From Dehalococcoidia bacterium (GTDB lineage: Bacteria; Chloroflexota; Dehalococcoidia; Lucifugimonadales; JAGWBF01): a stretch of 64,000 nt of DNA. Shown here in pieces: positions 14,496 through 43,446 of the stretch. The notes under the pieces were generated by a model. That model saw nothing but the letters and a program-made list of their open reading frames with translations. It was not told the DNA's origin and did no database searches. A program made the translations under genes and the position numbers. The stretch lies in NCBI GenBank assembly GCA_965247055.1, contig CBDFGE010000004.1, positions 199,895 to 263,894 on the forward strand, written 5' to 3'. Numbering within the stretch: the stretch's first letter is position 1; every line of letters starts with the position of its first letter.

Positions 14496-15413
14496 TTAGG
14501 ATGTGGACCGGGATGAGCCCTTCCCGTTTTTCGAGCTCCTGCGACCGGTGTCGCTCACCTGTTCCGCTGAGGCGCCGTCTCGGTCGTTGACGTCGGCCGC
14601 CATTTCCATTGGCTCTTCCACATGTTCCGGGTCGTGGTGCTCTCCGACGCCCATGGTCTCCCACTGGGTGATGGTGGACTCCATCGGAAAATCGTGCTGG
14701 GAGGAGCCGTTGCCATCGCCCAAGGCCCTGTCCGCGTTGGCCGTGACCTGGGAATGGACGTCCTGGGACATCGCCCTGATGGTGGCCGCCTCGGCGTATA
14801 TCCTCTGGGCCTCCAGCTCTTCCTGGGCGGCTTCGCGAATCGTGTCGATCTCGGAGAGGATGCACTCGACTTCGTATGTCACGTGGCGTTTCAGCTCTTC
14901 GCATTCCTGCAACGCGGCGGAGCGGGCTTCCTCCCGTATCCGCTGCGACTCCTCGTGGGCCTCGGCCATCACCTTGTCCCGGTAGCTCTCGGCCTCGGAG
15001 CGGACCATCTCGTTGTATTTGTCGGCCTCGGAGCGTGCCATGTCCCGATACGTGTCGGCCTCGGAGCGGACCATGTCGTGGTAGCTATCGGCCTCGGCCC
15101 GGGCCATCTGGGCTTGCATCGTCTCCCTCTCGGCCCCGGTTAGACGCTCCCGTGCCTCGCCCTCCGTCTGCTTCGCCCAGCTTGCCTGGCGCTCCGCTTC
15201 AGTTATGAGGTCCCTGCACGCCTGCCGGGTGGCCTCCAGAGCGTCCTTGGCAATCCGCTGGCGCTCTACCTCCGCCTTGGACCTGTTCTCCCTGGCCGCG
15301 GACAGATCGCTACGGCTTGAGCTTCGCTGGTTCAGGGCCTGCCTCCAAAGGGTCTCCACCCGATCGCGGGATACCTCCATATTTTGGTCCCTGTTTTGCC
15401 CGGGGTTCATCAC
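14496..15413 (-). CDS. Hypothetical coiled-coil protein with 11-residue repeats
   Basis: 305 aa, rich in E/A/R. It carries four to five tandem 11-mers, RSEAD(T/K/S)Y(R/N)(D/E)M(V/A). I recognise no enzymatic motif. Confidence 0.55.
   Translation of the reverse strand: MMNPGQNRDQNMEVSRDRVETLWRQALNQRSSSRSDLSAARENRSKAEVERQRIAKDALEATRQACRDLITEAERQASWAKQTEGEARERLTGAERETMQAQMARAEADSYHDMVRSEADTYRDMARSEADKYNEMVRSEAESYRDKVMAEAHEESQRIREEARSAALQECEELKRHVTYEVECILSEIDTIREAAQEELEAQRIYAEAATIRAMSQDVHSQVTANADRALGDGNGSSQHDFPMESTITQWETMGVGEHHDPEHVEEPMEMAADVNDRDGASAEQVSDTGRRSSKNGKGSSRSTS
14964..15104 (-). repeat. 33-bp coding tandem repeat (4-5 units)
   Basis: The plus strand shows the recurring unit ...tcggcctcggagcg(g/t)(a/g)ccatgtc... 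The encoded units are ARAEADSYHDMV / RSEADTYRDMA / RSEADKYNEMV / RSEAESYRDKV. Confidence 0.7.
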
Positions 15414-18203: not shown

Positions 18204-18437
18204 CCTCCATCTGATACGGGGGTTGATAGAGGAGGCAGCGCCGTGGCCAGTTGGGATATCGGAAGATACAAGGACGCCAGAAAGCTCACGGAACGGCAGC
18301 GGGCCGTCCGGATCTTCGTGGCCCACCTGGTGGCCTACGTCCTGGGAAACGTGGCCATCGGCCTCTGGAACGCCGGCACCTACTACCTGAGAGACAACGA
18401 AGAGGTCTGGTTCTATCTCCTCAAGTGGACCCCATGA

Positions 18438-19373
18438 TCAGGACAGCGGTGAGGCTAAAATAAGAGAGTCTACCGCTGGGGTGTCTTGTAAACCTTCATC
18501 CGATGGTAAGGCTCGTGGATGTTCCAGTAAACACCTTTGTGGGCTCACTGCATGGAACACCTGACCCGGTGACCGATAGCCCAGGGCTTGATGGGGCCGC
18601 TCTTGGTTGTAGAAGGCCAGATAAGCCCCAATCCCCTTTCTGGCCTCAGTCCCATTTTGGTATGCCTTCAGGTACACCTCCTCGTACTTGATGCTGCGCC
18701 ACAGCCGTTCCACGAAGACGTTGTCCATGCACCGGCCCCTGCCGTCCATGCTCACTTGAACGCCTTGCGCCAGCAGCATGCTGGTGAAGGCCTCGCTGGT
18801 GAACTGGCTGCCCTGGTCGGTGTTGAAGATCTGTGGCCGACCCTTGCTCAAGGCCTCTTCCAGAGCCGCAACACAGAAGTCTACCTCCAGGGTGTTGGAC
18901 AGCCGCCAGGCCAACACGTAGCGGCTGTGCCAGTCCATGATGGCCACCAAGTAGAGGAAACCCCGAGCCATGGGTATGTAGGTGATGTCGGTGGCCCACA
19001 CCTGGTTGACCCGGTTGATCTCCAGCCCCCTGAGCAAGTACGGATAGACCTTATGCCCTGGGTTTGGCTTGCTGGTGTTGGGACGCCGGTAGATGGCCTC
19101 CAGGCCTATCAGCTGCATCAGCCGGCGGACCCGCTTGCGGTTGACCTGGTGTCCGTGATTGCTGAGCCAGGCAGTCATCCTTCTGGAGCCGTAGAAAGGT
19201 GTCTTCAGGTACTGTTGGTCTATGAGGGCCATCAACTCCAAGTCCTCGGCGCCGGCCTCGGTTGGCAGGTAGTACAACGAGGAGCGGCTGATACCCAGCA
19301 AGGCGCACTGGCGCACCAGAGACAGCTTCGGTTCTTCTCGGTCAATCATGGCCCGGCGTTGGGACCGGCTCAC
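18438..19373 (-). CDS. IS3-family transposase OrfB (DDE/rve integrase core), in the -1 frame relative to OrfA
   Basis: 311 aa. Motifs seen: [39 protein letters not shown]. Confidence 0.9.
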
Positions 19374-19654
19374 AACCCGAAGCTCCGTGACAAAAAATCC
19401 CGTTCCACCTTGAGCTGCCCAATCTGTTGGTAGAACTGGGCAGTGAGGACCTCTTGGTCCTTCTCCTGGCGTCCACCACCATTTTCAAAGAGGTGCGGCG
19501 CCCCCTGAGTCAAGGCCTTCTTCCAGGCATGGATCTGGCTCGGGTGGACTTCAAACCGGCTGGCCAGCTCTGCAATGGTGTGCTCCCCCTGGAGCGCGGC
19601 CAAAGCCACTTTGGCCTTGAAGACTGGGCTGTGCTTCTTACGTGTTTGCTTCAT
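19370..19654 (-). CDS. IS3-family transposase OrfA (HTH)
   Basis: 94 aa. It begins [46 protein letters not shown] and has a leucine-zipper-like tail. Confidence 0.9.
19391..19397 (-). promoter_or_regulatory. Candidate -1 programmed frameshift heptamer U UUU UUG in IS3 orfA
   Basis: The minus strand reads GAT TTT TTG TCA near the end of orfA. The -1 frame reads through into [14 protein letters not shown] of orfB. Confidence 0.55.
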
Positions 19655-19860
19655 GTCCTGCTCCTTGTTTCCGTCCTATTTTAGGAGCGGGACTCTCTCT
19701 TAGCCACCTGTCCGAATTTTGGGGTCCACCTCACTCCCGCTGATATTCTGGGGCGTCGGGGTTTTGGTCCACTACCTTGTGTCGGTAGCGCTTTTCGACA
19801 ACTGGTGGGACAGCGACGAGAGGCGGATATCCGAACGCATGAGGAGATAGGGCCCCGTGG

Positions 19861-20652
19861 CTACTCTCCCTCCACCCTCGCCCTAAGGTCGCTGGCAAGC
19901 TGACGCAGCTCCTCGGCTACCTCTGCGGCAGTCACCGTCCCGTGGCGTTGGAGCAACGTCTTCACCTCCGGCTTGGTCGCCACCTTTTTTCGGAAGACGT
20001 CCTTCAGGGACACTGGAAGAGAGTCCAGCACCTCTCCCGCCCCGGAGCGGGCCCTGGCTTGAGGTGCCTCGGCTTCGGCCGGCGGCCCCGGGCGTGGTCT
20101 TACCGCAGCCGGCTCCCCCGTCCCGTCTGCCACTGGGGATGGCTGGACGGCGGGCCGCCTCACTGGCCTGACCTCGGGCGTATCGGCGGTGCTCTCTTCC
20201 CCCCCCCCCTCCTCCTGGGTAGCAGGCTCGATGCTGGCCCGCCGTATCGGTGGAGGCTGGCGCGTCTCTTCCTCCTCAGGGGAAGGTTCGATCCGTACCT
20301 GCCCGATGGGGCGTACCGCAGGCTCGGACGTGCCAGGCTCCTCTGGCGTGGGCTCCTCGGGAGGGCGTGAGCTCCTCGAGAAAACGTTATCCCTAAGGTC
20401 CAGAGGAAGCTGGTCCGTCTCCGTTTCCGCCTGTTGGGATGCCGGCGGGACTACCTCCTGCGGAGCGACTTCTGTAGCGGGGGCCGGAGTCTTCTGGGGT
20501 GCTTGGGCCTTGGCGGGCCCCTCGAGATGGAAGGTTTCCCTTACCGCTTCTAGCTCGGCATCCTCGGTAGCCCTTTCGAGGCGGGCTTGCTTCTTGGCAC
20601 GTCGCTTCTCGAGCCACTTCGTTAAGGGCCTGGTAAAGGTGGGTTCCCCCAT
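19861..20652 (-). CDS. Hypothetical E/P-rich, largely disordered protein, coupled to arlJ
   Basis: 263 aa. The start is 15 nt after the arlJ stop, with AGGAGG in between. It has a basic N-terminus (KWLEKRRAKKQARLE), a long P/E/A-rich middle, and a ~55-aa helical C-terminus (LPVSLKDVFRKKVATKPEVKTLLQRHGTVTAAEVAEELRQL). There is no TM segment. Confidence 0.55.
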   Translation of the reverse strand: MGEPTFTRPLTKWLEKRRAKKQARLERATEDAELEAVRETFHLEGPAKAQAPQKTPAPATEVAPQEVVPPASQQAETETDQLPLDLRDNVFSRSSRPPEEPTPEEPGTSEPAVRPIGQVRIEPSPEEEETRQPPPIRRASIEPATQEEGGGEESTADTPEVRPVRRPAVQPSPVADGTGEPAAVRPRPGPPAEAEAPQARARSGAGEVLDSLPVSLKDVFRKKVATKPEVKTLLQRHGTVTAAEVAEELRQLASDLRARVEGE

Positions 20653-20667
20653 AGTGTTACCTCCTGG

Positions 20668-22212
20668 CTATGAGATGGGAAAAAGCTTCCCGGTAAGGAT
20701 CGGGACCACTCCCAGGATTACTCCCGAGGTCACGCACATGATGCTGAAGAATGAGGCGAGCTTCAGGTGGTGCCCGCCGGCGGCGAATTTGGGAGCAAGG
20801 GTGTTGGCGAAGGTGAGTATGATCACCACCAGCACGATCATGTAGGAGGTAAGGGTTAGGTCCTGAGTTGCGAAGATGTCCAGCCCCCCGGCCAGGTCCC
20901 CGCCCTGGGGCAGCTGGATCCCCGGCGGCAGCTGAAGGTTCTCGGGCACCTCGAGTGTGCCCACTGCTTTCCCGCCCACCTCGGCGGAGGCCAGCGCCAG
21001 CCTTGAGTTGAAGCTGGTGATAATTTCTAGAATGAAGACCAGTATGAATACCATCGTGGCGTGCATGGGCACGGCAAGGAAGGAGAATGTGGAGGCGGTG
21101 AGCTTCCGCTTGGCGCGCAGCTGGGTTACACGGGAGGCGTAGTCCGAGCAGATCTGCCCGACCAGGTCTGGCCGGCCGCCCAACTCCGACCCGTCCACCA
21201 GCATGTGGGTGGTGCGGTTGGCCAGCTCACTCCCCGTCTCCTGCCTGAACTTCTCCCAGCAGCTGTGGGTGGGCAGATTGGCGTTGAGGCGGGTCCGCAG
21301 GTTAATGATGTGAGGTTCCAGGGAGCCCATGGACCTTACGTCGATCCTTCTCAGGCCCTCCGTGAGGGTCACCCCTGTGGACCCCGCGACGTTGCCGACA
21401 CTTCTCAGGAAGGTGGGGAACTCCGAGTCCAGCGTGGCCACATTGGCGTCGTCCTTCCAGGCCATGTAGCCCGAGGGGACCAGGGAGAGTCCCAGAAGCA
21501 GGAAAAAGACTGCGAAGCCGGCCTGGAGGCCGAACTGGAATCCCAGTGCGATGCCCAGCATCGCCCCGAAGGGCGCCAGCAGCAACAGGGTCCTGGCAAG
21601 ACGCCGCTCTCTGGTAACGCCCTCGGGCATGTCGTAGGTGATCTGCTCCACCGGGGACACCTTATATATGACGTACACTCCGGTGGAGGTGATGAAAAAC
21701 AGGGTAAAGGCCATGAGCACGATGAAGTTCTGACCGATGGAGCCCATCATGGCGGATACCAGGGACACCACCATGATCAGTGTCACCGAGACCAGGATAG
21801 CCGCGTAGGCGTCTGTCCACTTCCTGAGGTTCCTCCACGCTGCGGTCGTACTCGTTGCCGTACTGCTCAGCCTGGACCTTGGCCTCTCCCTCTCCGATTC
21901 CCCGGAAGAGATGGAGGCGGCGAAACGCAGCAGGAGGCTCTTGACGTTGGTGGCACGGGCCTTTTCCGATACCAACTGGAATGCCTGGGTGTACTCGAGG
22001 CCCATGCGCTTGGCCAGCAGGTAGATGTACTCGAAAAAGACGGCTGTCTTGAAACGCTGGCGGCCGGAGTGTTCCAGGACCTGATCCCTGGGCAGGCCCC
22101 CCATGGACAACACCGACATATAGGTGAGGTTGGAAAGGAGGTCGAAGCCTACTACGACGTTATCGGAAGAGACCTTCTCTATACGCTTGGGAGAGGACGT
22201 TATGGAGCTCAT
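20668..22212 (-). CDS. arlJ: Archaellum/type IV pilus platform protein, FlaJ/ArlJ-like (two T2SS-F-like halves)
   Basis: 514 aa. A cytoplasmic helical domain followed by TM helices occurs twice. It overlaps the arlI 3' end by 53 nt. Residues ~107-127 (ERERPRSRLSSTATSTTAAWR) look out of frame (see findings). Confidence 0.7.
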   Translation of the reverse strand: MSSITSSPKRIEKVSSDNVVVGFDLLSNLTYMSVLSMGGLPRDQVLEHSGRQRFKTAVFFEYIYLLAKRMGLEYTQAFQLVSEKARATNVKSLLLRFAASISSGESERERPRSRLSSTATSTTAAWRNLRKWTDAYAAILVSVTLIMVVSLVSAMMGSIGQNFIVLMAFTLFFITSTGVYVIYKVSPVEQITYDMPEGVTRERRLARTLLLLAPFGAMLGIALGFQFGLQAGFAVFFLLLGLSLVPSGYMAWKDDANVATLDSEFPTFLRSVGNVAGSTGVTLTEGLRRIDVRSMGSLEPHIINLRTRLNANLPTHSCWEKFRQETGSELANRTTHMLVDGSELGGRPDLVGQICSDYASRVTQLRAKRKLTASTFSFLAVPMHATMVFILVFILEIITSFNSRLALASAEVGGKAVGTLEVPENLQLPPGIQLPQGGDLAGGLDIFATQDLTLTSYMIVLVVIILTFANTLAPKFAAGGHHLKLASFFSIMCVTSGVILGVVPILTGKLFPIS

Positions 22213-24001
22213 AGAAGTTGGTCAGGTCCCTTTCGTGGAGCTTCTTCAGGATGTCGGTCCGTTCGTCGATGACTTCGTAAATCTTCCGGCTCTCGTGGGG
22301 CGGTGTGCCCCGCTTCAAGGATACCACGTGTTCCAGCAGGCTGGTGTTCATGTAGGCGGGAAACTCGAAGGTATCGGTGGCGGCATCCCACCGGAACACC
22401 TCTATGAACCCGAAGGAGTTGGATTCGGGGTCGTATTCGACGATCTTGTTTATGCTGAGCACTCGCCTGGCAGGGCGGCCGTCGGGCAGCCGGACCGCGC
22501 TCATGATGATGACCATGTTCAGGTTGTCTATGTAGGTCTTGGGGATGTTGATAGGGTTGCCCGTTAGCCGCTGAATGAGCTTTTCCACGGAGGCGGCGTG
22601 GCCGGTCTGCATGGCCTGGAAGGCGACGGCGCCTTCTTCGCCCCGAATCTCGCCGATTATGATCTCGTTGGGCCGCTGTCGAAGGGCCGCCCTGAGGAGG
22701 TCAAACATGGTAACCGAGGCGCCGCCGCTGGCGCTCCCCCGGACCACTTCCCTGGTCCAGTTGGGGTGAGGGACCTGGAGCTCGGGCGTATCCTCGATGC
22801 TGACTATCTTGGCGTTGGGGTTGATGAAGGTGGTGATGGCGTTGAGCAGCGTCGTCTTGCCCGAGGCGGTCTCTCCGGAAACAAAGGTGTTCATCCCCTC
22901 GCCCAGCATAAGGGAGATGTAGGCAGCCATCTGGTAGGTGAGGGTGCCCCCGTCGATCAGGTCCAGGATGCTCATGGGTATCGCGCTGAACTTCCGTATG
23001 GTGAAGTTGCTCCCCCTCTTGGACACGTCGCCCCCGTAGACTATGTTCACCCGGGAGCCGTCTGGGAGGACGGCGTCGACTATGGGGTCTCGCACCGTCA
23101 CCGGCCGGCTTATCTTCTCCGAGAGGGAGATGACAAACTTGTCCAGTTCTTCGGTAGTCTCGAAGGTGACGCCGGCCTTCAGGCCTCCGAAGATCTTGTG
23201 CTCCACGAAAAGCGACCCCACCCCGCTGCAGCTGATGTCCTCTATATAAGGGTCGGAGATGAGGGGTTCTAGATACCCCAGGCCCTGCTTGTCTCGCACC
23301 ATCAGGTATTTAAGTCCCTGGAGCTCTTTACCCGTTACCTGGACGGTGCTTCCCTGCCGGCGTCCTGTCTTGGTCGTACAGATCTGGTCCAGGCATTGCA
23401 GCAATACCAGGGTGCGTCCCTCAGCATCAGTTGCTTTCTTCAGCTCGTCAACGTAGTTTATTAGGTGTTTGTCAACCTCCACCATCAGCTTGGGGAGGGC
23501 GGCGTTCATGGACGGCTCCACGGGTATGTAAAAGTCCCGGCTGTCGGTCACGTCGGGGCGCAGGTGAACGAACACGCCCTTACCCACGGGGTAGATGAGG
23601 TTCCGGTACTTGATGTCCCGCATGCCGCGGCTGAGCCGGGGCTGGTAATCGGGCACGCCGATATCGTCGATGGGCAGGCCCCGTAGGTACTCCCACAGGT
23701 GGTCCTGGGCCCGGGACTGCTCCTTGAGCGCCTCGGGTAGCTCCTTGAACAAGGGAGAGTTGAAGTCCGTCTTTCCGTTGCCGGAGGACCGGACTGGGGT
23801 GGGTTGTCCATCTTCCGACTTGCGGGGCGCTACCTTGAATCTGAAGGACGCTATCTTGGACATGGTGGTGCTGGAGGATTTGTCTCCGTTGCTACCGCCG
23901 TCCGCCCTAGGCTCGCGACCGTTCTCGTCGTCGGCGCCGTCCTCGTCCCGCGCCCGCGCCTTTTTGAACTGGGACACAAACCGCCGTGCACCTAACTTCA
24001 T
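22160..24001 (-). CDS. arlI: FlaI/ArlI-type secretion ATPase (T2SS-E / VirB11 superfamily)
   Basis: 613 aa. Walker A is SGETASGKTTLLNAI and Walker B is IIIGEIRGEE; the His box is AMQTGHA. There is a ~110-aa charged N-terminal extension. Confidence 0.8.
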   Translation of the reverse strand: MKLGARRFVSQFKKARARDEDGADDENGREPRADGGSNGDKSSSTTMSKIASFRFKVAPRKSEDGQPTPVRSSGNGKTDFNSPLFKELPEALKEQSRAQDHLWEYLRGLPIDDIGVPDYQPRLSRGMRDIKYRNLIYPVGKGVFVHLRPDVTDSRDFYIPVEPSMNAALPKLMVEVDKHLINYVDELKKATDAEGRTLVLLQCLDQICTTKTGRRQGSTVQVTGKELQGLKYLMVRDKQGLGYLEPLISDPYIEDISCSGVGSLFVEHKIFGGLKAGVTFETTEELDKFVISLSEKISRPVTVRDPIVDAVLPDGSRVNIVYGGDVSKRGSNFTIRKFSAIPMSILDLIDGGTLTYQMAAYISLMLGEGMNTFVSGETASGKTTLLNAITTFINPNAKIVSIEDTPELQVPHPNWTREVVRGSASGGASVTMFDLLRAALRQRPNEIIIGEIRGEEGAVAFQAMQTGHAASVEKLIQRLTGNPINIPKTYIDNLNMVIIMSAVRLPDGRPARRVLSINKIVEYDPESNSFGFIEVFRWDAATDTFEFPAYMNTSLLEHVVSLKRGTPPHESRKIYEVIDERTDILKKLHERDLTNFYELHNVLSQAYREGLFR

Positions 24002-24027
24002 GTTCTACCCCTTAGCGCCAGGGACCG

Positions 24028-24055
24028 CCGCGACGGGAGGGCGCGCCCGTCGCGG
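24028..24055 (-). promoter_or_regulatory. Perfect 10-bp stem hairpin 27-54 nt upstream of arlI
   Basis: CCGCGACGGG (24028-24037) pairs with CCCGTCGCGG (24046-24055) around an 8-nt loop. It lies in the 74-nt remnant of the arlH-arlI spacer. Confidence 0.3.
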
Positions 24056-24075
24056 TCCAGCTCGGAGATGGGCAT

Positions 24076-25387
24076 CCCTAGCAGGATGCTGAAAAACCTG
24101 TACCTGACGGGGTCGTTGTGTAGGTGGTATAGTCCGGGGTAGATAAACTTGGGGAGGGAGCGGGATGCGAGGAGATGTGGAAAGGCAGACCATGATTCTA
24201 AGTGCGGGGACTCCGGACCAGCTGATACCCGAAGACCACCCCATCCGGCTAATCAAACCCATGGTCGACCGGGCCTTGGCTGAGCTGTCTCCCACCTTCA
24301 GCCGCATGTACGCCAAGGTGGGACGCCCCTCCATTCCTCCCGAACACCTGCTAAAAGGATGCCTGCTGATGGGTCTCTACACCATCAGGAGCGAGCGCCA
24401 GTTCTGCGAGCGACTGCAATATGACCTGCTGTTCAAATGGTTTCTGGACCTGAACATCATGGACCCAGCCTTCGACTCCTCCACCTTTTCCAAGAACAAG
24501 ACTCGGCTATTGGACCATGAGGTGTCTGGACAATTCTTCCAAGAGGTGTTGGCCGAAGCTCAGCGCCGGAATCTGCTGTCCGATGAGCACTTCACCGTGG
24601 ATGGGACCTTGCTGGAATCTTGGGCGTCATTGAAGAGCTTCCGACCCAAAGATGGTAGAGGGCCCAGGGGAGGAGGACGCGACCCCGAGGTGGACTTTCG
24701 CGGGGAAGAAAGGAAGAACGACAGCCATGCCTCCACCACGGACCCAGAGGCTCGACTGGCGCGTAAGGGCCCTGGGAAGGAGGCCAAGCTGTGCTTTGCC
24801 GGACACGTGCTAATGGAGAACCGTAATGGCTTGGCGGTGGGGGTGTTGGTCACTGAGGCCAACGGACGGGCGGAGCGGCAGGCCGCAGTGGAACTGCTTT
24901 CCCGTTTACGAGGAGTAGGCCGGATAACGTTGGGTGGAGACAAGAACTACGACGCCAGAGCCTTCGTTGCTAGATGTGGGGAGATGAAAGTCACGCCCCA
25001 CGTGGCCCAAAATACCAAAGGCCGGTCCAGCGCCATCGATGGCAGGACAACCCGTCACCCGGGGTATGCCATCAGCCAGCGGGTGAGGAAGCGGGTGGAG
25101 GAGATCTTCGGCTGGACCAAGACGGTGGGCGGCGGGCGCAAGTTGCGTTACATCGGGGTAGCCCGCAACCAGATGTGGGCGGACCTGACGGTGGCTGCCT
25201 ACAACCTGGTCCGGATGGCCAAATTGGCTTTAAACCCGGGCTGAAGGTGGGACAAAGGCCTGATCCGGGGGTGGAGTGGCCTCCCCCGGTGGCTGAGACC
25301 TCTCCTCTATAGGGTGCATCCCTCCAAAACAACGGGAGTTAACGGTCTTTAGCCCACCTGCCGGCCTTATTTCAGCACCCTGCTAGG
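24076..25387 (+). mobile_element. IS5-family insertion sequence, copy A (1312 bp)
   Basis: By my reading it is identical to 44694-46005, and all ORF-track translations are identical. The terminal inverted repeats are CCTAGCAGG(A/G)TGCTGAAA. Both termini contain CTAG. Confidence 0.85.
24165..25244 (+). CDS. IS5-family DDE transposase
   Basis: 359 aa. The N-terminal transposase domain contains LIPEDHPIRLIKPMVD...SIPPEHLLKGCLLMGLYTIRSERQFCERLQYDLLFKWFL. The DDE region contains TVDGTLLESWAS and GDKNYD. Confidence 0.9.
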   Translation: MRGDVERQTMILSAGTPDQLIPEDHPIRLIKPMVDRALAELSPTFSRMYAKVGRPSIPPEHLLKGCLLMGLYTIRSERQFCERLQYDLLFKWFLDLNIMDPAFDSSTFSKNKTRLLDHEVSGQFFQEVLAEAQRRNLLSDEHFTVDGTLLESWASLKSFRPKDGRGPRGGGRDPEVDFRGEERKNDSHASTTDPEARLARKGPGKEAKLCFAGHVLMENRNGLAVGVLVTEANGRAERQAAVELLSRLRGVGRITLGGDKNYDARAFVARCGEMKVTPHVAQNTKGRSSAIDGRTTRHPGYAISQRVRKRVEEIFGWTKTVGGGRKLRYIGVARNQMWADLTVAAYNLVRMAKLALNPG

Positions 25388-26102
25388 CTCTAGCCCTGGA
25401 GATCGGCACGATCCTGATGCCCAACCCCGGCTCCACCTCGAAACCAGATATATTGCCTGTGACCATCTCCGCTCCCCGTATTTTGGCTACCGCAAGGGTT
25501 TTCACCATCTGGGAGCCCGACCTCTGCACCTGGAGCTTCAGATAGGCGTCACACACCGACCTGACCCTCGTCAGAATGTTCTCGTCGAAGGCATAGGAGT
25601 GCACCGTACAGATTATCACCTTCCCCTGGTCACAGAAGGCCTTGCACCTTCGGAAGAAGTCCTGGATCTGGTCGCCTCCAGCGTGGGAAACGAAGGTGGT
25701 GAGGGAGTCTACGATTACGACCCGGCACTTCTGCTGTGCCTCAATGTGCCTGGTCAGCTCTTGAAAGAGAATTCCGGGCTCTATGGAGTCCGGAGGAATT
25801 GTGACCGGATATATCTGGAGATGGTCCAAAAGAAAGTAGTCCTTTACGTCGAGTCCCAGGCTGTCCATCTGCCTTAAGAAGCTCTGGACGGTCTGCTCGG
25901 TGACGTAGATCGCCACGTCTTCCCCGGATTTAAGGGCGCCGGACAGAAGTTGCTGTGCCCAGGTGCTCTTCCCCGATGCCGCTTCTCCTTCGATCAGCAT
26001 CAGGGTGCGGTAGGGTATACCGCCCCCGATGCGCCTGTCGATCTCCTGGGTCTGCGTGGATATTACCGTGTTCTGCTGTGCCAGGCCTACGGCGCTTGTC
26101 AT
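25383..26102 (-). CDS. arlH: KaiC/RecA-like ATPase, FlaH/ArlH-like
   Basis: 239 aa. It contains IDRRIGGGIPYRTLMLIEGEAASGKSTWAQQL, and its length and C-terminus (GIRIVPISRA) resemble FlaH. Its TAG stop (25385-25383) is the CTAG at the IS terminus. Confidence 0.75.
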   Translation of the reverse strand: MTSAVGLAQQNTVISTQTQEIDRRIGGGIPYRTLMLIEGEAASGKSTWAQQLLSGALKSGEDVAIYVTEQTVQSFLRQMDSLGLDVKDYFLLDHLQIYPVTIPPDSIEPGILFQELTRHIEAQQKCRVVIVDSLTTFVSHAGGDQIQDFFRRCKAFCDQGKVIICTVHSYAFDENILTRVRSVCDAYLKLQVQRSGSQMVKTLAVAKIRGAEMVTGNISGFEVEPGLGIRIVPISRARA

Positions 26103-26205: not shown

Positions 26206-26423
26206 GGATACGGGCACACTAGCGCTCCACGGCGGCTCTAGCTCCGGGCGTTGTTGACTTGTTACAGTGGTTCCTTTAGAATACACCATTGGCGCCACAG
26301 AAACCGCGTTGCTCGCTGTATCCCGTCCCTGTGCTTACCTTAGATATCGGGTGCCGTATACGGCTCGGCGTGCTACGAAGGCGTTTGGGGCGGTGCTACT
26401 CCAGGAAGGGAAGGGGAGAGGCG

Positions 26424-27839
26424 ATGGCGTATCGAGAAGATATTGCCCTGATGGCCCACCTGATGCGGCGTGCCGGGTTTGGAGCGTCGCGCGCCGAGCT
26501 GGACGCTCGGGTCGCCAGGGGGTACGAGGCGACGGTGGAGGAGCTGCTGGAACCTGATAGCCACGGCATTCCTGAAAACGATGAGGACCTTCTCTTTCGG
26601 CACGCATCGGGGACGATGCTTCCCGGAGGCGTCCCCCTCCCGGGGCAGGCGAACTACATCTGGCAGATGATCAACACCAGGCGTCCCCTGGAAGAGAAGA
26701 TGGCCCTGTTCTGGCACCACGTGTTCGCCACCGGCAACTCCAAGGTAGACAATTGCGACCAACTCCTTGCCCAGATAAACATGTTCCGGCGCCGCGGAAT
26801 GGGCAGCTACCGGGAGCTCCTGGTGGAGCTGGCCAAAAATCCTGCCATGATCTTCTGGCTGGACAACAACCAGAACCATAAGGACCAGCCCAACGAGAAC
26901 TGGGGCCGAGAGCTGCTCGAACTGTTCTCCATGGGCGTTGGCAACTACACCGAGCAGGACGTTTTCGAGTGCTCCAGGGCCTTCACCGGTTGGACCATCG
27001 CCCCCAAGATACCTCGCCTCCCTCTGGGACGCTTCTCCTGGGAGTTCGAGTACAGGCCCGAGGACCACGACGATACGGCGAAGGTGTTCCTGGGGCACCG
27101 GGGCCGCTTCGACGGGGAGGACGTCATAGACATCATCGCCCGGCAACCGGCCACGGCGCGGTTCATCGCCTGGCACCTGTACAACTTCTTTGTTGCCGAT
27201 GAGCCGCAGGTGCCGGCGTGGCAGCACACCCCGCCCCGCGACCCCGCCGCCGTCAACATAATAGCGGACGTCTTTATCACCTCCGGCTACGACATGCGTT
27301 CCATCCTCCGGGTGCTGTTCTACTCGGAGTTCTTCAAGGAAGCCCGTTACGCCAAGGTGAAGAGCCCGTCCGAGGTCGTAGTGGGGACCATGAACCTGGT
27401 GGGAGACTTCAAGGGTATACCCAAGCCGGGTCTCTACGACATCGGCGCGGAGCCGACCAATATGGGTCAGGCCCTGCTGGACCCCCCCAGCGTGGAGGGG
27501 TGGCACACCGGGTCCGAGTGGGTAGACAGCGGTGCCCTGGTGAGGCGGATAAATTTTGTGGGCGACAAGCTGGGGGACCTGAGCCTGCCCGGTGTCCAGG
27601 ACATTGTCGACCGGGTCCGCGCTCGCGGTCCCATCTCCCCCGATCAGCTGGTGGATGACTGCCTCGACCTTATTGGGCCTGTCGAGGTCGGGGAGGGGAC
27701 ACGTCGAGAGCTCTTGGGTCACGCAGAGGCTGGGGGCGAGGTGCGATGGGATTCGGAGGAAGCGCCCGGCGCGTCGGCCCGGAGGGTCGCGGAGATGCTA
27801 CAGCTGATAGCCTGCACCCGGGAGTTCCAGTTCGGCTAG
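26424..27839 (+). CDS. DUF1800 family protein
   Basis: The track ORF starts at 26289, but ATG 26424 follows GGAAGGGGAGAGG. Motifs seen: MAHLMRRAGFGASRAELD, LFWHHVFATGNSKV, FWLDNNQNHKDQPNENWGRELLELFSMGVGNYTEQDV. Confidence 0.8.
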   Translation: MAYREDIALMAHLMRRAGFGASRAELDARVARGYEATVEELLEPDSHGIPENDEDLLFRHASGTMLPGGVPLPGQANYIWQMINTRRPLEEKMALFWHHVFATGNSKVDNCDQLLAQINMFRRRGMGSYRELLVELAKNPAMIFWLDNNQNHKDQPNENWGRELLELFSMGVGNYTEQDVFECSRAFTGWTIAPKIPRLPLGRFSWEFEYRPEDHDDTAKVFLGHRGRFDGEDVIDIIARQPATARFIAWHLYNFFVADEPQVPAWQHTPPRDPAAVNIIADVFITSGYDMRSILRVLFYSEFFKEARYAKVKSPSEVVVGTMNLVGDFKGIPKPGLYDIGAEPTNMGQALLDPPSVEGWHTGSEWVDSGALVRRINFVGDKLGDLSLPGVQDIVDRVRARGPISPDQLVDDCLDLIGPVEVGEGTRRELLGHAEAGGEVRWDSEEAPGASARRVAEMLQLIACTREFQFG

Positions 27840-27904
27840 TCTGAAGTATCGGGCGCACGTGCCGGCGGAGATGGTTGCACAAGGCTCGAAGGGTAGGAGA
27901 AAAC

Positions 27905-28924
27905 ATGCTGGTACGCACTGTCTCGGGCAGGACCTACAGCTATAGCCACTGTCTTGGCCGCGGGGCCAACGGTGGGACCGGCTTCAGGTACGCGATGGAC
28001 GTAGGTCTGGGGCCCGGTGGCGTCGCCTATGTTTTGAACCGGACCGCCGAGTACAACCCCTTTACAAGGGTGACGAAGTGTACGCTCGGGGACGGTGCCG
28101 GCCAGGAAGAGTTTCTCCTGGAATTCGGTAGCTACGGCTCGGAGGACGGCCAGTTCATGCAGGTCACCTGTCTCGCCCTTGACAGTGAAGAGAACGTGTA
28201 TGTGGCCGATGAGTGGCTCAACAGGATCTCCGTGTTTGACAGGCAGGGCAGATTCTTGAACAAATGGGGCGTGGCGGGCCCGGGCGAAGGGGAGCTTAAC
28301 CGGCCCTGGGGACTGGCCTTCGATAGGGACGAGAACTTGTGGGTGGTGGACAGTGGCAACGAGCGTGTCCAGGCGTTCAGCAGGGAGGGGAGGTTCTTGC
28401 GCTGTTGGGGCAGGGAGGGCAGCGGCGACGGTGAGTTCAATATGCCCTGGGGTATCACTGTGGACGGCGCGGGCGACGTCTATGTGGCCGACTGGCACAA
28501 CGGCCGGGTGCAGAAGTTCGACCAGGAGGGGCGGTACCTGATGAGCTTCGGCGCTTCCGGCAGCGGCGACGGAGAGCTAAGGCGACCCAGCGGCGTGGCC
28601 GTGGACGAACAGGGTGATGTCTACGTGGCAGACTGGGGCGCGAGCCAGGTCCATGCCTACCGGCCCGACGGCTCCTATATCACGACCTTCATTGGAGACG
28701 CCCAGCGTCTACCTGCCTGGGGGGAGATGTCCATCGCCGCCAATCCGGACATGGGAAGGGCCCGGATGAGGGTCAAAAGCCTGGAGCCTGAATGGCGTCT
28801 GTTGTGCCCGACGGCGGTGAAGGTCGACGATCGCCGGAGGATTGTCGTCGTTGACCAGCAACGTAGCCGCCTCCAGATCTACGTGAAAGAAAAGGACTAC
28901 GTCGAGCCCCAGTTCAACCTGTAG
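27905..28924 (+). CDS. NHL-repeat six-bladed beta-propeller protein
   Basis: ATG 27905 follows GGGTAGGAGA. It carries repeated G(E/D)G(E/Q)(L/F)xxPxG(L/I/V)AxDxxGxxYVAD units. Confidence 0.8.
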   Translation: MLVRTVSGRTYSYSHCLGRGANGGTGFRYAMDVGLGPGGVAYVLNRTAEYNPFTRVTKCTLGDGAGQEEFLLEFGSYGSEDGQFMQVTCLALDSEENVYVADEWLNRISVFDRQGRFLNKWGVAGPGEGELNRPWGLAFDRDENLWVVDSGNERVQAFSREGRFLRCWGREGSGDGEFNMPWGITVDGAGDVYVADWHNGRVQKFDQEGRYLMSFGASGSGDGELRRPSGVAVDEQGDVYVADWGASQVHAYRPDGSYITTFIGDAQRLPAWGEMSIAANPDMGRARMRVKSLEPEWRLLCPTAVKVDDRRRIVVVDQQRSRLQIYVKEKDYVEPQFNL

Positions 28925-29005
28925 GACCAGCTCACCTAGCTGGAGTCTCTCCCGCGGGGGACAGGCGACATCTTCTCTCCGCCCGAAGTGTAACATGGAG
29001 GGGTC

Positions 29006-29683
29006 ATGTACGACTTTCACAGCCACACCTTCCTCAGCGACGGAGTGCTTTCGCCGGTCGAGCTGATCCGCCGGGCGCACGTGCGTGGATACCGGGTGAT
29101 AGGCGTGACGGACCACGTTGGTATGGGGAACGTGGAGCTGGTGGTGAAGATGCTGGTCAAGGAGTGCGCCATGGCGTCCGCCCGGTGGGACATACTTGCG
29201 CTGCCGGGGGTGGAGATCACCCACGTCCCCAAAGAAGATATCGACCTGGTCGCCGAGGCGGCCAAGGGGCTGGGGGCGGTGGTCGTGGTGGTCCACGGTG
29301 AGACCATAGTCGAGCCTGTGGAGCCGGGGACCAACCGGGCGGCTATAAGCTCCCCGTCGGTGGACATCCTGGCGCACCCGGGCATTATAGCGGTGGAAGA
29401 CGCCCGCCTGGCGTCGGACAGGGGGGTGTTCCTGGAGGTGTCGGCCCGCAAAGGCCACAGCCTCGCCAACGGGCACGTGGTGCGGATGGCTCTGGAGACG
29501 GGGGCCCTGATGCTGCTGGACTCGGATGCCCACGAGCCCGACGATCTTCTTACTCCCGAGCTAACTCAGCGGATCGCCCTCGGCGCTGGGTTGACCCACC
29601 ATCAAGCCCAGGTCCTCCTCGAAGAGAACCCCAGGCGCCTGCTGGACAAGCTAGAAGCCCGCCCGGTACCCGCCGGTCCGTGA
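29006..29683 (+). CDS. PHP-family (histidinol-phosphatase-like) metal-dependent phosphoesterase
   Basis: 225 aa. Motifs seen: MYDFHSHTFLSDG, VIGVTDH, VVVHGET, AHPG, DSDAHEP. Confidence 0.75.
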   Translation: MYDFHSHTFLSDGVLSPVELIRRAHVRGYRVIGVTDHVGMGNVELVVKMLVKECAMASARWDILALPGVEITHVPKEDIDLVAEAAKGLGAVVVVVHGETIVEPVEPGTNRAAISSPSVDILAHPGIIAVEDARLASDRGVFLEVSARKGHSLANGHVVRMALETGALMLLDSDAHEPDDLLTPELTQRIALGAGLTHHQAQVLLEENPRRLLDKLEARPVPAGP

Positions 29684-29970: not shown

Positions 29971-30930
29971 CTAGGCGCCGGCCGGAGATGGAGCATAGGG
30001 AGAGGGCGACTGCAGGCTGAACACCTTCTCGGGCTGCCACAGGTTTTTCGACCGGTCAAAGTGCACGACCGCAAGAAAGCTTCCATCCTGAGTATAGACC
30101 CGGTACCTTTCCATATAGCCCGCGTGAATCCCGATGTGACGAGGTAAGCTTACGGGCTGCCCGCTGATTATGTACCGCTGCGCCGCTCTGCTCACCGCGA
30201 CACTCTTCATATGTAGCAGAACGTAGTCCACAGGCACGAGGTACTCGTTCCACGGCTCTGGGCACGTCGCCTCTTGAAGCTTCGATAGACGTACGCTCTC
30301 GTCCATAGTGAAGGGCCCCGAGGCGACGCGGACAAGGCTGCGAAGGTAACCGCCGCAGCCCAGCGCTTCACCCAGGTCGTGGGCGACGGAGCGCATGTAC
30401 GCGCCCCGTCCGCTCTCCACCTCCAGTAGCAGAGATGGAGTAGAGTAGTCCAGTATCTGGACCTGGAAGACCTCCACCTTTCGTGGCTGCCGCTCCACCT
30501 CGATTCCGGCCCTGGCGAGTTTATACAGGCGCTGACCCCCGACCTTGATTGCGCTGTACATGGGTGGAGTCTGATAGATGGTGCCCCGGAACGACTTCAG
30601 GGCCTCTTCCACAGCTCCCAACTCCACCCCCGAAGGGTCGCCCCTCTTCACCACTTCTCCCTCCCCGTCGTAGGTCGAAGTGGTAACCCCCAGCTCCACT
30701 TCCATGCGGTAACGTTTGGGGCTCTCCACCAGGACCTCCATCAGACGGGTCGCCTGGCCGAAGCAGATGGGTAGTATCCCTTCCGCCAGCGGGTCGAGGG
30801 TGCCGCCATGTCCCACACCTTTCTTGAGGCCAGCCAGCCGCTTGACCTGGCGGACGATCTCCATAGATGTGGGGCCGGAAGTCTTGTAGAGGTTAAGAAA
30901 GCCGTTTATCGGTGCCTTTTTCCTGTCCAT
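29971..30930 (-). CDS. truB: tRNA pseudouridine(55) synthase
   Basis: 319 aa. Motifs seen: GFLNLYKTSGPTSMEIV, GHGGTLDPLAEGILPI, and a PUA-like C-terminus. Confidence 0.95.
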   Translation of the reverse strand: MDRKKAPINGFLNLYKTSGPTSMEIVRQVKRLAGLKKGVGHGGTLDPLAEGILPICFGQATRLMEVLVESPKRYRMEVELGVTTSTYDGEGEVVKRGDPSGVELGAVEEALKSFRGTIYQTPPMYSAIKVGGQRLYKLARAGIEVERQPRKVEVFQVQILDYSTPSLLLEVESGRGAYMRSVAHDLGEALGCGGYLRSLVRVASGPFTMDESVRLSKLQEATCPEPWNEYLVPVDYVLLHMKSVAVSRAAQRYIISGQPVSLPRHIGIHAGYMERYRVYTQDGSFLAVVHFDRSKNLWQPEKVFSLQSPSPYAPSPAGA

Positions 30931-31034
30931 TCCTCAGACCGACACGTCAGGTTGACCGAGCCGCACCCACAGTAGTAGCCCTGGGCGCCGGCCAATCGGT
31001 CTATGGGGTAAGTCTCCTTGTGGAGAAAGGCCCG

Positions 31035-31427
31035 CTATGGCCCAGTATCGCCGGCGGCTTCCCCCTGGGCTGTGCCCGAAGGACCGTCTGCGGAGAGTCC
31101 GTCCATGAGTTTGTAAATCTGCTCTGCGTCCTCGAGGGACTTGTCCAGGACGAAGCTCAACTGAGGAACGTACCTGAGAGATAGCCGATCCCTCAGCTCT
31201 TTCCTCATGAACCCGGCCGCCGACCTGATGCCCGTCAGCACCTTGTCCTTATCTCCCTGATCGCCCAGCACGCTAACGTGGACTCTAGCCAGGCGCAAGT
31301 CCGGGGAGGTCTCTACCTGGGTAATGCTGACGACTCCCGAGAGTCTGGGGTCATTCAGCTCGCGGGCGAGGAGCTGGCTGATTTCCTGGCGTAAAAGCCC
31401 GTTGATGCGCTCAGTGCGCCTGGTCAT
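31035..31427 (-). CDS. rbfA: Ribosome-binding factor A
   Basis: 130 aa. It contains RTERINGLLRQEISQLLARELNDPRL...ITQVETSPDLRLARVHVSVLG. Confidence 0.95.
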   Translation of the reverse strand: MTRRTERINGLLRQEISQLLARELNDPRLSGVVSITQVETSPDLRLARVHVSVLGDQGDKDKVLTGIRSAAGFMRKELRDRLSLRYVPQLSFVLDKSLEDAEQIYKLMDGLSADGPSGTAQGEAAGDTGP

Positions 31428-31501
31428 GGGAACCTACCCCCATCACAACCAAGAAGGAACTGACCAACGGTGGCCCGGATGGTCCAGACGCGGCCGGGGC
31501 T

Positions 31502-33340
31502 TTATCGGGTGGCTCGCTCCTTGCGATAGGTCTCCAGCACATCCTTTTCCTGGAAGTCGTTGTAGCCAGCCATGCCCACGCCGCACTCGAAGCCAGTGGC
31601 CATCTCGTTCACTTCTTCCTTGAAATGCCGGAGACTGGATATGGTCCCCGCGTGGATGACTACTCCCTCGCGGAGGACCCGCACCAAGGCCGACCTGGAG
31701 ACGCGCCCGTCGGTCACCATACACCCGGCTATTCGCGTCCGCCGGCCCATGGAGAAGATGGCCCTTATCTCGGCGTGGCCCTGGGTGACCTCTACGAAAG
31801 TAGTCTCTAGGATGCCCGACAGGGCCTTGTCTATGTCCTCCAGCAGCCGGTAGATGATGGCGTAATGCCTGATCTCCACCCCTTCCCTTTCGGCGAGCCG
31901 CTCCACACGGGGCTCGGTGGAGGTGTTGAACCCCAAGACGATGGCGTTGGAAGCACTGGCCAGCAGCACGTCGCTGTCGGTAATGCTGCCGCTCCCAGCA
32001 TGGAGGACCCGCACCTTCACCCTTTCTCCCTCCAGACGCTCCAAGGAGGAGCACACAGCCTCTACGCTTCCCTGTACATCGGCCTTCACGACAAGGTTTA
32101 GCTCTTTTATTTCCCCGGCGCTGACCTTGGTGTTGACCTCTTCCAGGGTCAGGGCGTGTGTATTGAACAGCTCTGTGTCCGTCTGGCGCGCCCTCTGGTC
32201 CACGATCTCCCTGGCGGCCTTTTCGTTGGGCACCACGACGAAGACATCGCCAGCATCGGGAAGGGGGTTGAAGCCCATGACTTCCACGGGCACGGAGGGC
32301 CCTGCCTCCTTGGTCCGTTCGCCCCTTTCGTTGGCCATCGCCTTGACCCTGCCGTAGGCGCTGCCAGCCACCACGGTGTCACCGATTCTGAGGGTACCGT
32401 TCTGAACCAGCACCGTGGCCAGGGGACCCCTGTTCCTGTCCAGCTTGGACTCGATTACGACGCCGGAGGCCAGCGTGTCGGGGTCGCCTTTCAGATCGGC
32501 TACCTCGGCGACTGCCAGGATGTTCTGCAGCAACTCCTCAATGCCGTCGCCCTGGATCGCGGATATGGGCACTGTGATGACGTCCCCTCCCCACTCTTCC
32601 AAAACCAGCCCCTGCTCGCCTAGCTGGCGCTTCACTCGGTCGGGATCGGCCTCGGGCACGTCGATCTTGTTTATAGCCACCACTATGGGCACGCCGGCCG
32701 CTCTGGCATGGTCCAACGCCTCTCTGGTCTGGGGCATCACGCCGTCGTCGGCCGCCACGATGAGGATTGCGATGTCCGTCGCCCGGGCGCCTCGGGCCCT
32801 TATGGCGGTAAAGGCCTCATGGCCGGGGGTGTCGAGAAAGGTGATCTCTCTGCCGTCGTAGGTCACCTGGTAGGCGCCTATGTGCTGGGTTATACCGCCT
32901 GCCTCACCGGCGGCTACATGGCTCTTGCGGACACTGTCCAGCAAGGTGGTCTTGCCGTGGTCCACGTGTCCCAGTATGGTCACCACGGGAGCGCGGGCGA
33001 CGAGTTTGGCGGGGTCCGTGTCCTCCGGTGCCTTCGAGGAGCCTGCCGACCCCGGGGTCGCTGCTTCCTCAGGACGTACCCTCACCTCAAAGGCAGAGGT
33101 GATCAGAGTAGCCATTTCGAAGTCGATAGTCTGGTTTACGGAGGCCATGATGCCATTGCGCATTAGCTGTTTGATCGCGTCTATGGGACTGATGTCGGTA
33201 AGCTCGGCCAGCCGTTTTATGGTGAGGGTCTGGGGAAGGACCACCACCTTGGGGGCAACCTTGCGGCGTGATGCCCTCTTCTCCGCGGTGCCGGTCTTTT
33301 TCCCGCCGCCTTCTGCGACGGCCGTTTGTTCAGAGCTCAT
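31502..33340 (-). CDS. infB: Translation initiation factor IF-2
   Basis: 612 aa. Motifs seen: [29 protein letters not shown], and the C-terminal domains. Confidence 0.97.
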
Positions 33341-33636
33341 CGTACATCTCCAATACTGGCCGACTTGAGGTGCTCGTGGTAGAACAGGGAGAGGGCTTCT
33401 CTATCCTGCTCTGGTAGGGGCGCCCGGAGAACGTGCTCCAGCCGGGCCTTTCTCAGGCCACGGCTCCAGCACTCCTCCTTGGGGCACAGGTAAGCGCCGC
33501 GGCCCGCGATCTTGCCCGTGGGGTCCACCAGCACCTTCCCAGCCGGAGTACGGACTATCCTTATGAGCTGTCTCTTGGGCAGCCTTTCGCCACAAGTGAC
33601 GCAGCCTCGGACTGGTATGTGTTTAGCCTTCTGCAC
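33337..33636 (-). CDS. ylxR: YlxR/DUF448 family RNA-binding protein
   Basis: 99 aa. It contains [22 protein letters not shown]...GRGAYLCP and overlaps the infB start by 4 nt. Confidence 0.9.
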
Positions 33637-33648
33637 ACCCTACTTCGG

Positions 33649-35238: not shown

Positions 35239-35520
35239 CGCGTCCTTTGCCCCCCCAAGAGTTTGGGCGCCTACGATCGCCCGCTCCACCGCACCAGTCC
35301 CCGATAGACACGTGACCGCTGTCCCTCCTTCTAGCAAGAAGCCCCGATGTATCGGGGCCTCCAGGAACAGGAGCGCGTGCCAACCAGAGTATAGCATCCA
35401 ACGCCGGGCGTTGCAACCTTTTTGCCCAAAACACAAAACAGGCCACCGGCCCCGACGGCGTTCTCCCAATATGGGGCCGCGCCGGTCAGGCCGGGGCGCC
35501 GGACTCGCTGGGCATCACGG

Positions 35521-36159
35521 CTACTGGATGACGGTCAAGGTGGTGCCGGTGCCATCGTCGCCGTCTGCCTCGTCGTGGTTGTCGCCGGACTCATATGTGT
35601 AGCTTGCGTGGGTCACGTCCGTCACCTCGAAGATCGTCGAAGGCGTGCCTGCGCCGATATTCTTCGAGTCTAGCGTGCAGGTCCCGTCCGCGGCCGTTGT
35701 ACAGGAGGTCTCTGGGTTGTTGCCGGCCTCGGTCCAGGTCCCAGTGACGCTGGCGCTTTCCACAGCCGCCTCATTGTCGTCGTGGACGGTAACTGTGACC
35801 AAGGCCTTCCAGTTGCCCTGGGTCACACCATCGAGGTCTCCCACGTGCATGTTCAGATCGGGTGGGCAGGGCGTGGTGAACCCCGAGAAGGAGCCCGTCG
35901 CCGTGAGCCCGTTAGGCGTGCTTATGACCACGCTCCCCGAGGTGACCCCGGTCACGGGAAGGGACAGCTCCCCCGTTATGGCCATGGTCTCCCCCGGGTC
36001 GAAGATGCCGGGTTGGAACAGGTCGGAGGTGGAGGTGAGGGACTTGGTCCACTTGCCCGAGCTGGGTGGGCTGGCGGTGGTGTAGGTGAGGCTCTGGGAT
36101 GCGTTGTTCCCCTGGGTAAGCTGGACGATATAGTATCTTAACGGCTGTCGCCCAGTATT
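35521..36159 (-). pseudogene. Start-less T/G/S-rich beta-type protein fragment (probable remnant)
   Basis: The track gives 154 aa from ATG 35985. By my translation the frame stays open upstream to 36159 (...YYIVQLTQGNNASQSLTYTTASPPSSGKWTKSLTSTSDLFQPGIFDPGET-MAITGELS...). That stretch has no ATG/GTG/SD and no signal peptide. It begins 14 nt after the kinase stop. Confidence 0.4.
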
Positions 36160-36172
36160 TCAAGCCACACAC

Positions 36173-38152: not shown

Positions 38153-38262
38153 GGGGAGCCTCCTGTGGCGGTTGCCGCCGGACAAGTCTATTTTAACGCT
38201 CGACGCCGGGAAATGTCGAGGTATACTTGCCTGGAGGTACAGCTACGGGGTTGGGGGCAGGG

Positions 38263-41917: not shown

Positions 41918-42075
41918 ACTGGCTTTCGTGACCCTTTCAGAATCGCTGGTGTCAAGGGCAGCTAATATCGGGGCTCCTGGAGGGGTGGGCCCGGGCAGTT
42001 AGCTTATGCGGCTCTATCGGGCTGAGATGCCGGCCAGCCCGAATAGTGGAGGGTAGTCCGGGTGCTGGGAGTAGA

Positions 42076-43431: not shown

Positions 43432-43446
43432 GTGACCGTGCTGTGC

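Follow-up and report, generated by a model that had tools for sequence, protein, structure and literature searches.

A probable decaying archaellum locus, divided by the nusA operon, in a Dehalococcoidia bacterium

The motor genes and their family identity

The stretch of DNA analysed here (the window; 64,000 nucleotides of contig CBDFGE010000004.1) comes from a bacterial genome, probably of a member of the Dehalococcoidia in the Chloroflexota, and carries on its minus strand a group of genes related to those of the archaellum, the motility machine of archaea. The group begins with arlH (25383-26102), an apparently intact gene for a 239-aa KaiC/RecA-like ArlH/FlaH protein that is of orthologue length and has a Walker A motif. 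It is followed by arlI (22160-24001), which encodes a 613-aa FlaI-type ATPase from which the His box has been deleted, and by arlJ (20668-22212), a 514-aa open reading frame (ORF) for a platform protein that carries two insertions or deletions. The last gene, here called X (19861-20652), lies after arlJ and encodes a low-complexity, mostly disordered product of 263 aa. An ORF check places all four on the strand and at the positions originally predicted, and the motifs first picked out in the products, GEAASGKST, SGETASGKTTLLNAI and IIIGEIRGEE, are present. The window is ~62 % GC, and the arl, X and insertion sequence (IS) ORFs of the region are rich in G and C at third codon positions, as in real genes.

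Families were assigned with NCBIfam at its curated cutoffs, with Pfam, and with the sequences of solved structures in the PDB, while lost genes were sought by tblastn. Pfam alone gives generic T2SSE and T2SSF domains for the ATPase and the platform protein. With NCBIfam, ArlI scores 588.5 bits against the FlaI equivalog NF058587 (cutoff 550), compared with 151 bits for the TadA-type model, 115 for VirB11 and at most 47 for PilB/PilT/GspE, and its best PDB match is Sulfolobus acidocaldarius FlaI (4II7, 406 bits over residues 130-611), ahead of CpaF (139 bits) and PilT (~33 bits). ArlH reaches 250.9 bits against the FlaH subfamily model NF004723 (cutoff 194) and 203.3 bits, slightly below the cutoff of 215, against the ArlH equivalog NF052589; FlaH 4YDS is its best PDB match, at 117 bits over residues 13-239, with KaiC at 79 bits or less. 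The platform protein is 64-76 % identical to ArlJ orthologues and matches ArlJ/FlaJ models only, the top one being NF004703 with 348.7 bits over residues 15-513, short of the cutoff of 570; no TadB/TadC/PilC/GspF model of NCBIfam was matched at E <=0.01.

In a tree built from 22 ArlI sequences by neighbour joining, the window protein falls within a tight Chloroflexota clade that contains the ArlI of complete loci, apart from the sampled archaeal sequences and distant from the proteobacterial T2SSE outgroup. Its nearest named relatives in GTDB representative genomes belong to Dehalococcoidia metagenome-assembled genomes, at 69-70 % identity; the species of the window has no entry in that set. 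That the trio forms a separate paralogue lineage was considered and rejected, as its ArlI groups with the ArlI of complete loci. NCBIfam, PDB and tree thus agree with the original prediction of an archaeal-type ArlH-ArlI-ArlJ module in a bacterial genome, and the profile and phylogeny check that was proposed for it puts the ATPase above the FlaI equivalog cutoff and in the Chloroflexota archaellum clade rather than among Tad or type IV pilus proteins. On this combined evidence, the trio consists of archaellum genes by descent, and an origin from Tad, T4P or T2SS genes is rejected.

The two archaeal structures are the closest solved relatives of the window proteins and share with them conserved Walker A and Walker B motifs. 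Unlike 4II7, the window ArlI has a ~100-residue N-terminal extension and is without seven residues of the His box. The extension had been listed among the unusual features of the locus; it does exist, but it contains conserved motifs and is common to relatives, including those with complete loci, and is therefore no peculiarity of this one.

Loss of the ArlI His box and frameshifts in arlJ

The lesions described below were read against several related sequences. The sister strain L001, a 2.64-Mb ENA contig, is ~99 % identical to the window and fully syntenic with it, and with L065 and L066, which come from other samples and have ~99 % DNA identity, the species is represented by four strains; the archaellum loci of L065 and L066 stop before arlJ. 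L005 and L007 are relatives with complete archaellum loci, and L002, L003/L063 (with L064), L004, L006, L067 and L068 represent related species compared at the locus. Several of the related contigs are of low coverage (2-11x according to the contig names), and some frameshifts in the relatives may be sequencing errors.

In an alignment with 11 relatives, the window ArlI is without the seven residues HACMATF, such that the His box TGH-ACMATF-HA is shrunk to TGHA. The box is kept in 21/21 other ArlI/T2SSE sequences, archaeal and proteobacterial ones included, and HACMATF is present in P0007, the ArlI fragment of the sister strain L001, which has 98 % amino-acid identity to the window protein. 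Aligned with 4II7, the missing residues are SVMATFH. The DNA of L001 at this position reads CCACGCC-TGCATGGCCACCTT-CCACGCC, with 21 bp retained that are missing from the window, where a single CCACGCC (22595-22601) marks the junction of an in-frame deletion. One remaining copy is what a 21-bp deletion between 7-bp direct repeats leaves behind. The window protein still has Walker A (SGETASGKT) and Walker B (IIIGEIRGEE), yet the catalytic motif set of Walker A, Asp box, Walker B and His box is incomplete, the His box being gone. In the related ATPase PilB, the second histidine of the box coordinates the gamma-phosphate and mediates inter-subunit cooperativity (PMC5424180). The window gene is arlI by descent, and its product is probably not a working ArlI.

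In the case of arlJ, two changes together leave the reading frame open. In a DNA alignment, the window and L001 read GTGGAGGAAC where four orthologues read GTGGAGAAC, an extra G (21832-21833) that sits within a short G run and is a +1 frameshift passed down by the common ancestor of the window and L001. Lying 54 nt upstream is a 13-bp deletion (AGTTTATCGCCCA; junction 21887/21888), found in the window only, which restores the frame at the cost of 18 misread codons. The out-of-frame stretch (21833-21887) specifies residues 110-127, RPRSRLSSTATSTTAAWR, 18 residues in place of 22 conserved ones, a net loss of four. In the orthologues this site reads EF..QEA...E.ERY.NEYERSVE and is part of the conserved first cytoplasmic domain.

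Insertion sequences in and around the locus

The IS that had been noted between arlH and arlI is a 1301-bp element of the IS5 family (24082-25382, plus strand; transposase 24165-25244), which lies at the arlH stop codon. Its transposase scores 254.6 bits against NF033581 (cutoff 140), and its ends, CAGGATGCTGAAA and TTTCAGCACCCTG, match each other imperfectly as inverted repeats. A 4-bp target duplication, CTAG, is found at 24078-24081 and 25383-25386 and takes in the arlH stop codon, and the site is empty in L001. The element thus has the DDE transposase, inverted repeats, 4-bp duplication and empty site in a related genome that define membership of the family. If the motor genes once formed a single operon, as we infer, the insertion would be expected to have a polar effect.

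Three other elements were found in the window: a second IS5 copy (~44697-46002); an IS256-type copy (42067-43438) of the same IS type as that in arlI of L001; and an IS3-family element (18421-19733, minus strand; orfA 19370-19654, orfB 18438-19373) with the target duplication CTCC, which is absent from L001. The 2TM-domain gene downstream of X (18243-18437, plus strand), of 96 aa in L001, L003 and L006, is cut short by the IS3 element. There are accordingly four IS copies within 64 kb (one IS256, two IS5 and one IS3), at least three of them strain-specific, their sites being empty in L001 or L065. Such strain-specific insertions suggest that IS elements are active at present.

An archaellum locus divided by the nusA operon

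Upstream of the trio, beyond the housekeeping operon nusA-ylxR-infB-rbfA-truB (29971-35469, minus strand), lies a remnant of arlF (35863-36132, minus strand). The remnant corresponds to the C-terminal half of the protein and runs in frame into an immunoglobulin-like (Ig-like) extension (ORF 35521-35985). By tblastn it is 54 % identical over 93 aa to residues 87-178 of the L005 ArlF (E 3e-24), and it is 42 % identical to the ArlF of L007. A stop codon (36160-36162) precedes it, and nusA follows immediately. A homologue search with the ORF returned only its 99 % identical counterpart in sister strains and unrelated Ig-like domain proteins, with no ArlF context. Derivation of the Ig-like extension from the 530-550-aa gene of the complete loci was rejected on comparison.

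On the far side of the remnant are genes for a cNMP-binding histidine kinase (36173-37354, minus strand) and a LuxR-type response regulator (37457-38185, minus strand), both identified with Pfam and, respectively, 61 % and 67 % identical to the kinase and regulator encoded upstream of arlB in L005. Beside this pair, on the former arlB side, is an ORF for an nSTAND NTPase with an adenylate/guanylate cyclase (38530-40344, minus strand). The trio of cyclase, regulator and kinase genes also precedes nusA in L068 and may feed a cyclic-nucleotide input to archaellum regulation.

The gene order of relatives gives this arrangement its meaning. In the complete loci, the order is arlB, a coiled-coil gene, arlG, arlF, the 530-550-aa gene, arlH, arlI, arlJ and X. 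In L063/L064, the genes upstream of nusA are an IS, a 3' fragment of arlB (arlB'), the coiled-coil gene in two pieces, arlG, two arlF genes and an IS3 element; from there, L063 continues with nusA-ylxR-infB-rbfA-truB-DUF5679-PHP, an arlH that is split by IS256, two IS elements, arlI, arlJ and X. The junction truB-PHP-arlH-arlI-arlJ-X is also found in L002, L006 and L068. The arlF remnant, taken together with the gene order of L063/L064, shows that the archaellum locus of this clade is split by the nusA operon. The window trio is the downstream half of such a split locus, the upstream half having been almost wholly deleted.

With respect to filament and stator genes, the original prediction had found no archaellin, prepilin peptidase, arlF or arlG in the 64 kb. 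For arlG this holds, and for arlF it does not, given the C-terminal fragment. A Pfam scan of ~50 window ORFs gave no Flagellin_arch-type match and no A24 peptidase domain, and tblastn of the window with two Chloroflexota archaellins was negative, as predicted. Measured against a MacSyFinder-type definition of a complete archaellum (arlB, arlH/I/J, arlF/G, and arlCDE or arlX), the window thus has neither the stator genes, namely a full-length arlF with arlG, nor an archaellin. The synteny comparison that had been suggested with other Chloroflexota loci shows the split arrangement in relatives and full loci in L005 and L007.

Decay in sister strains and related species

Different lesions are found in the other strains of the species. 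In L001, L065 and L066, an IS256 element sits in arlI at codon ~172, flanked by an 8-bp duplication (TCCCCAAG). L001 has, in addition, an extra A in codon 63 of arlJ, a 553-bp deletion by which arlJ has lost its 3' end and X its 5' end, and internal deletions of 23 bp and 11 bp in X. L065 and L066 have both lost 587 bp from the arlF remnant and the adjoining kinase gene. By comparison, the adjacent 5.9 kb of infB-rbfA-truB-PHP-NHL has just one 1-nt gap when the window is aligned with L001. Such a concentration of strain-specific null lesions in the arl genes is what would be expected of a locus that is no longer selected.

The condition of the site in related species is equally varied. L006 has an intact trio and a partial tandem duplication at the motor end (L006:10001-13931), in which another arlI (75 % identity to the first copy) precedes a 654-aa X-like gene made up of the N-terminus of X joined in frame to an IS1182/IS5-type transposase. 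In L002 and L068, arlH and/or arlJ are fragmented and IS elements are present, and in L003/L063 this is so for arlH only, again with IS elements, all of these being subject to the low-coverage caveat. L004 has lost arlH, and ~30 codons of its arlJ remain. Of the two genomes picked by NusA, L067 has no arl genes at the site and L068 holds a further degraded copy, not an intact split locus.

Between species, the dN/dS ratios of arlH, arlI and arlJ are ~0.1-0.16, with dS at or near saturation. Values as low as these imply that purifying selection acted on the motor genes during most of the period since divergence, and that the decay is recent. If the split is ancestral to the lineages compared, the period of purifying selection covered the split arrangement as well.

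Gene X and other genes of the window

A gene X follows arlJ in split and complete loci of the clade (L005:13297-13905, L007:13402-14244, L006:8378-9115 and L003:13380-14111). The products are 200-280 aa long, with a variable, disordered middle flanked by a conserved N-terminus (MGESLF..PMK.WL) and ~50 conserved C-terminal residues (GEVLDSL.VSLKDVFRKK..T.P.VKALLQRHG.VDAREL), and match no Pfam or NCBIfam family. X may be an undescribed accessory protein of the archaellum loci of this clade. The presence of a disordered gene after arlJ had been counted as an oddity of the window; the gene is there, but it is common to split and complete loci alike.

Between the nusA operon and arlH are genes of the PHP, NHL and DUF1800 families (26289-29683). 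The DUF1800 gene (26289-27839, plus strand) adjoins arlH and is, as first described, divergent from it and upstream. It is a single ORF in the window and L065 and two ORFs in L001 (5549-6994) and L066 (17399-18818), which amounts to further strain-level gene breakage near the locus. Farther away, a DUF2357/PD-(D/E)XK nuclease gene (39983-41917, minus strand) and an AAA_5 ATPase gene (43447-44514, minus strand) look like a McrBC-type restriction pair, with the IS256 copy between them, and L065 and L066 are without ~3.15 kb of this region (window 40655-43808). A 305-aa ORF with no Pfam match (14496-15413, minus strand) holds four tandem repeats of 33 nt, or 11 codons, at 14955-15119. The window also encodes a 1,496-aa protein with multiple Ig-like/BACON_2/HYDIN-type domains (59135-63625, minus strand), probably a large surface protein, and a tRNA-Pro(CGG) (63856-63931).

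Comparison with known archaellum loci

That archaellum loci are already known in Chloroflexota, a caveat attached to the original prediction, is a matter of published record. Archaellum clusters were reported in 243/3,780 Chloroflexota genomes (Sivabalasarma et al., Nat Microbiol 2025, PMC12488501), and for Litorilinea aerophila the archaellum filament structure was solved and swimming shown. According to the same study, the prepilin peptidase of Chloroflexota is normally encoded outside the archaellum locus, all archaellum genes stay within one locus, and a second locus occurs in ten genomes, in 9/10 of them incomplete; incomplete loci are mentioned there, and pseudogenes and transposases are not (PMC12488501).

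The window resembles the published loci (arl2-type; Litorilinea aerophila and SAR202/Dehalococcoidia) in its gene families, in the order arlH-arlI-arlJ and in holding no prepilin peptidase (PMC12488501). Unlike them, it has nusA-infB-rbfA-truB separating the motor half from the filament/stator half, an arrangement that at least four related species have as well, and it has an arlF that is a fragment, an ArlI without a His box, a scrambled arlJ and IS insertions (PMC12488501). Archaella in Chloroflexota are therefore not new, and it is the split arrangement that is not described in the literature.

Decay of motility genes in IS-rich bacterial genomes is a general pattern. The window shares with it the presence of several IS families, null lesions that differ between near-identical strains, and small deletions between direct repeats, and departs from the usual case in that the decaying machine is a horizontally acquired archaellum rather than a bacterial flagellum.

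Interpretation and alternative explanations

The observations are, in our judgement, likely to reflect the decay of the downstream half of a horizontally acquired archaellum locus of the published kind, with the trio and X as what is left of it. The locus of the clade is split, with arlB, the coiled-coil gene, arlG and arlF placed upstream of nusA-infB-rbfA-truB and the motor half downstream. In the window genome, the upstream half has been reduced to a 3' arlF fragment, ArlI has lost the His box, a motif of the ATPase core, arlJ was frameshifted before regaining its frame with 18 scrambled residues, and the IS5 element cuts arlH off from arlI and arlJ. From the lesions, we infer that function has been lost and that the host would be non-motile by means of an archaellum; most likely, the motor genes are non-working now. 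The original prediction had offered an orphaned or decaying remnant as one possibility. Decay is what the lesions in the window and its sister strains point to, but the trio is one half of a split locus and not an isolated orphan.

Several observations weigh against this interpretation. All four ORFs of the window are open, and none of the four strains of the species has a damaged arlH. Within the species, pN/pS is 0.75 for arl (7 synonymous and 16 non-synonymous) against 0.43 for the flanking genes (17 and 23), a difference that is not significant and rests on few substitutions (23 in arl and 40 in the flanks). The inactivity of an ArlI without the seven residues is itself deduced from motif conservation, and the frame-restoring 13-bp deletion may reflect selection for keeping arlJ. 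Lastly, the searches spanned the 64-kb window, and an intact second locus, archaellins or a prepilin peptidase may lie elsewhere in the genome.

The last of these points leads to the strongest competing explanation, namely that the trio is an incomplete secondary, paralogous locus that decays through redundancy while a complete functional archaellum locus resides elsewhere, in which case the organism may still swim. Ten genomes are on record with a second locus, incomplete in nine (PMC12488501), and in L006 a further arlI copy follows closely downstream of the trio. Nevertheless, the presence of an arlF remnant here, and of arlB', arlG and arlF ahead of nusA in L063, shows that the site once held the full gene set, and the ArlI clusters with that of complete loci, with no separate paralogue branch; the L001 contig contributes only P0007 to the top 120 ArlI relatives (>=58 % identity), although this is a weak argument. 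We consider a second locus of this sort unlikely. Less probable still is that the trio and X remain a working motor for filament and stator genes encoded elsewhere, with the His-box and ArlJ changes tolerated. This possibility, also raised in the original prediction, can draw on four open ORFs, on an arlJ frame regained by a second indel, and on the dN/dS of 0.1-0.16, which implies that the motor genes were selected in the split arrangement. It is contradicted by the deletion of a His box that is kept in 21/21 homologues and that in PilB serves gamma-phosphate coordination (PMC5424180), by the exchange of 22 conserved ArlJ residues for 18 unrelated ones, by the IS5 element between arlH and arlI, by the reduction of the window arlF to a fragment, and by the independent lesions of the three sister strains, all with outright null lesions in arlI, and L001 in arlJ too.

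It could also be argued that errors of assembly or sequencing account for the small lesions and that the locus is intact in vivo, given that related contigs are of low coverage by name and that the extra G falls in a short G run. This is very improbable: the window and L001, two separate sequences, both have the extra G; neither the 21-bp nor the 13-bp deletion is of the homopolymer type, and the former lies between 7-bp direct repeats; the IS insertions have target duplications and empty sites in other strains; and the alignment of the nearby 5.9-kb housekeeping block with L001 contains just one 1-nt gap. As for a bacterial Tad, type IV pilus or type II secretion system, for which the generic T2SSE and T2SSF domains returned by Pfam could be cited, the profile scores and the comparison with solved-structure sequences rule it out to the point that its likelihood is negligible. 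The ATPase and platform do belong to the same superfamily as those of the Tad motor (CpaF/TadA, TadB, TadC), and CpaF is the closest bacterial solved structure, but the FlaI equivalog outscores the TadA-type model (588 versus 151 bits) and 4II7 outscores CpaF (406 versus 139). In contrast to TadB plus TadC, the window platform is a single fused protein of ~514 aa that matches ArlJ models only, and the ArlH/FlaH gene and the arlF remnant have no Tad counterpart; the relatives, moreover, carry archaellins, arlG and arlF.

Implications for archaella in bacteria

Archaella in bacteria represent a recent and striking inter-domain transfer of a whole machine, and the window adds no new kind of system to those described. 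What is new relative to the published survey is that the cluster is split by a housekeeping operon and that it decays through the insertion of IS elements and through microhomology-mediated deletion; the claim in print that every archaellum gene stays in one locus (PMC12488501) fails for this clade. There is also a caution for annotation, in that profile detectors would call arlH, arlI and arlJ present in spite of a lost catalytic motif and lost filament genes, and counts of 'archaellated' Chloroflexota may include non-functional loci.

It may be speculated that the intact arlH of four strains and the restored frame of arlJ hint at residual selection for a role other than swimming. A broader proposal, which we put forward tentatively and would stop short of calling likely, is that an IS-rich clade of Dehalococcoidia came to have an archaellum split around the essential nusA-infB-truB genes, that this arrangement was selected for a long time, and that it is now being lost independently, through differing lesions, in several species and even among strains of a single one. 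If this is true, the clade would provide natural snapshots, in series, of how a motility machine that had been transferred between domains is lost.

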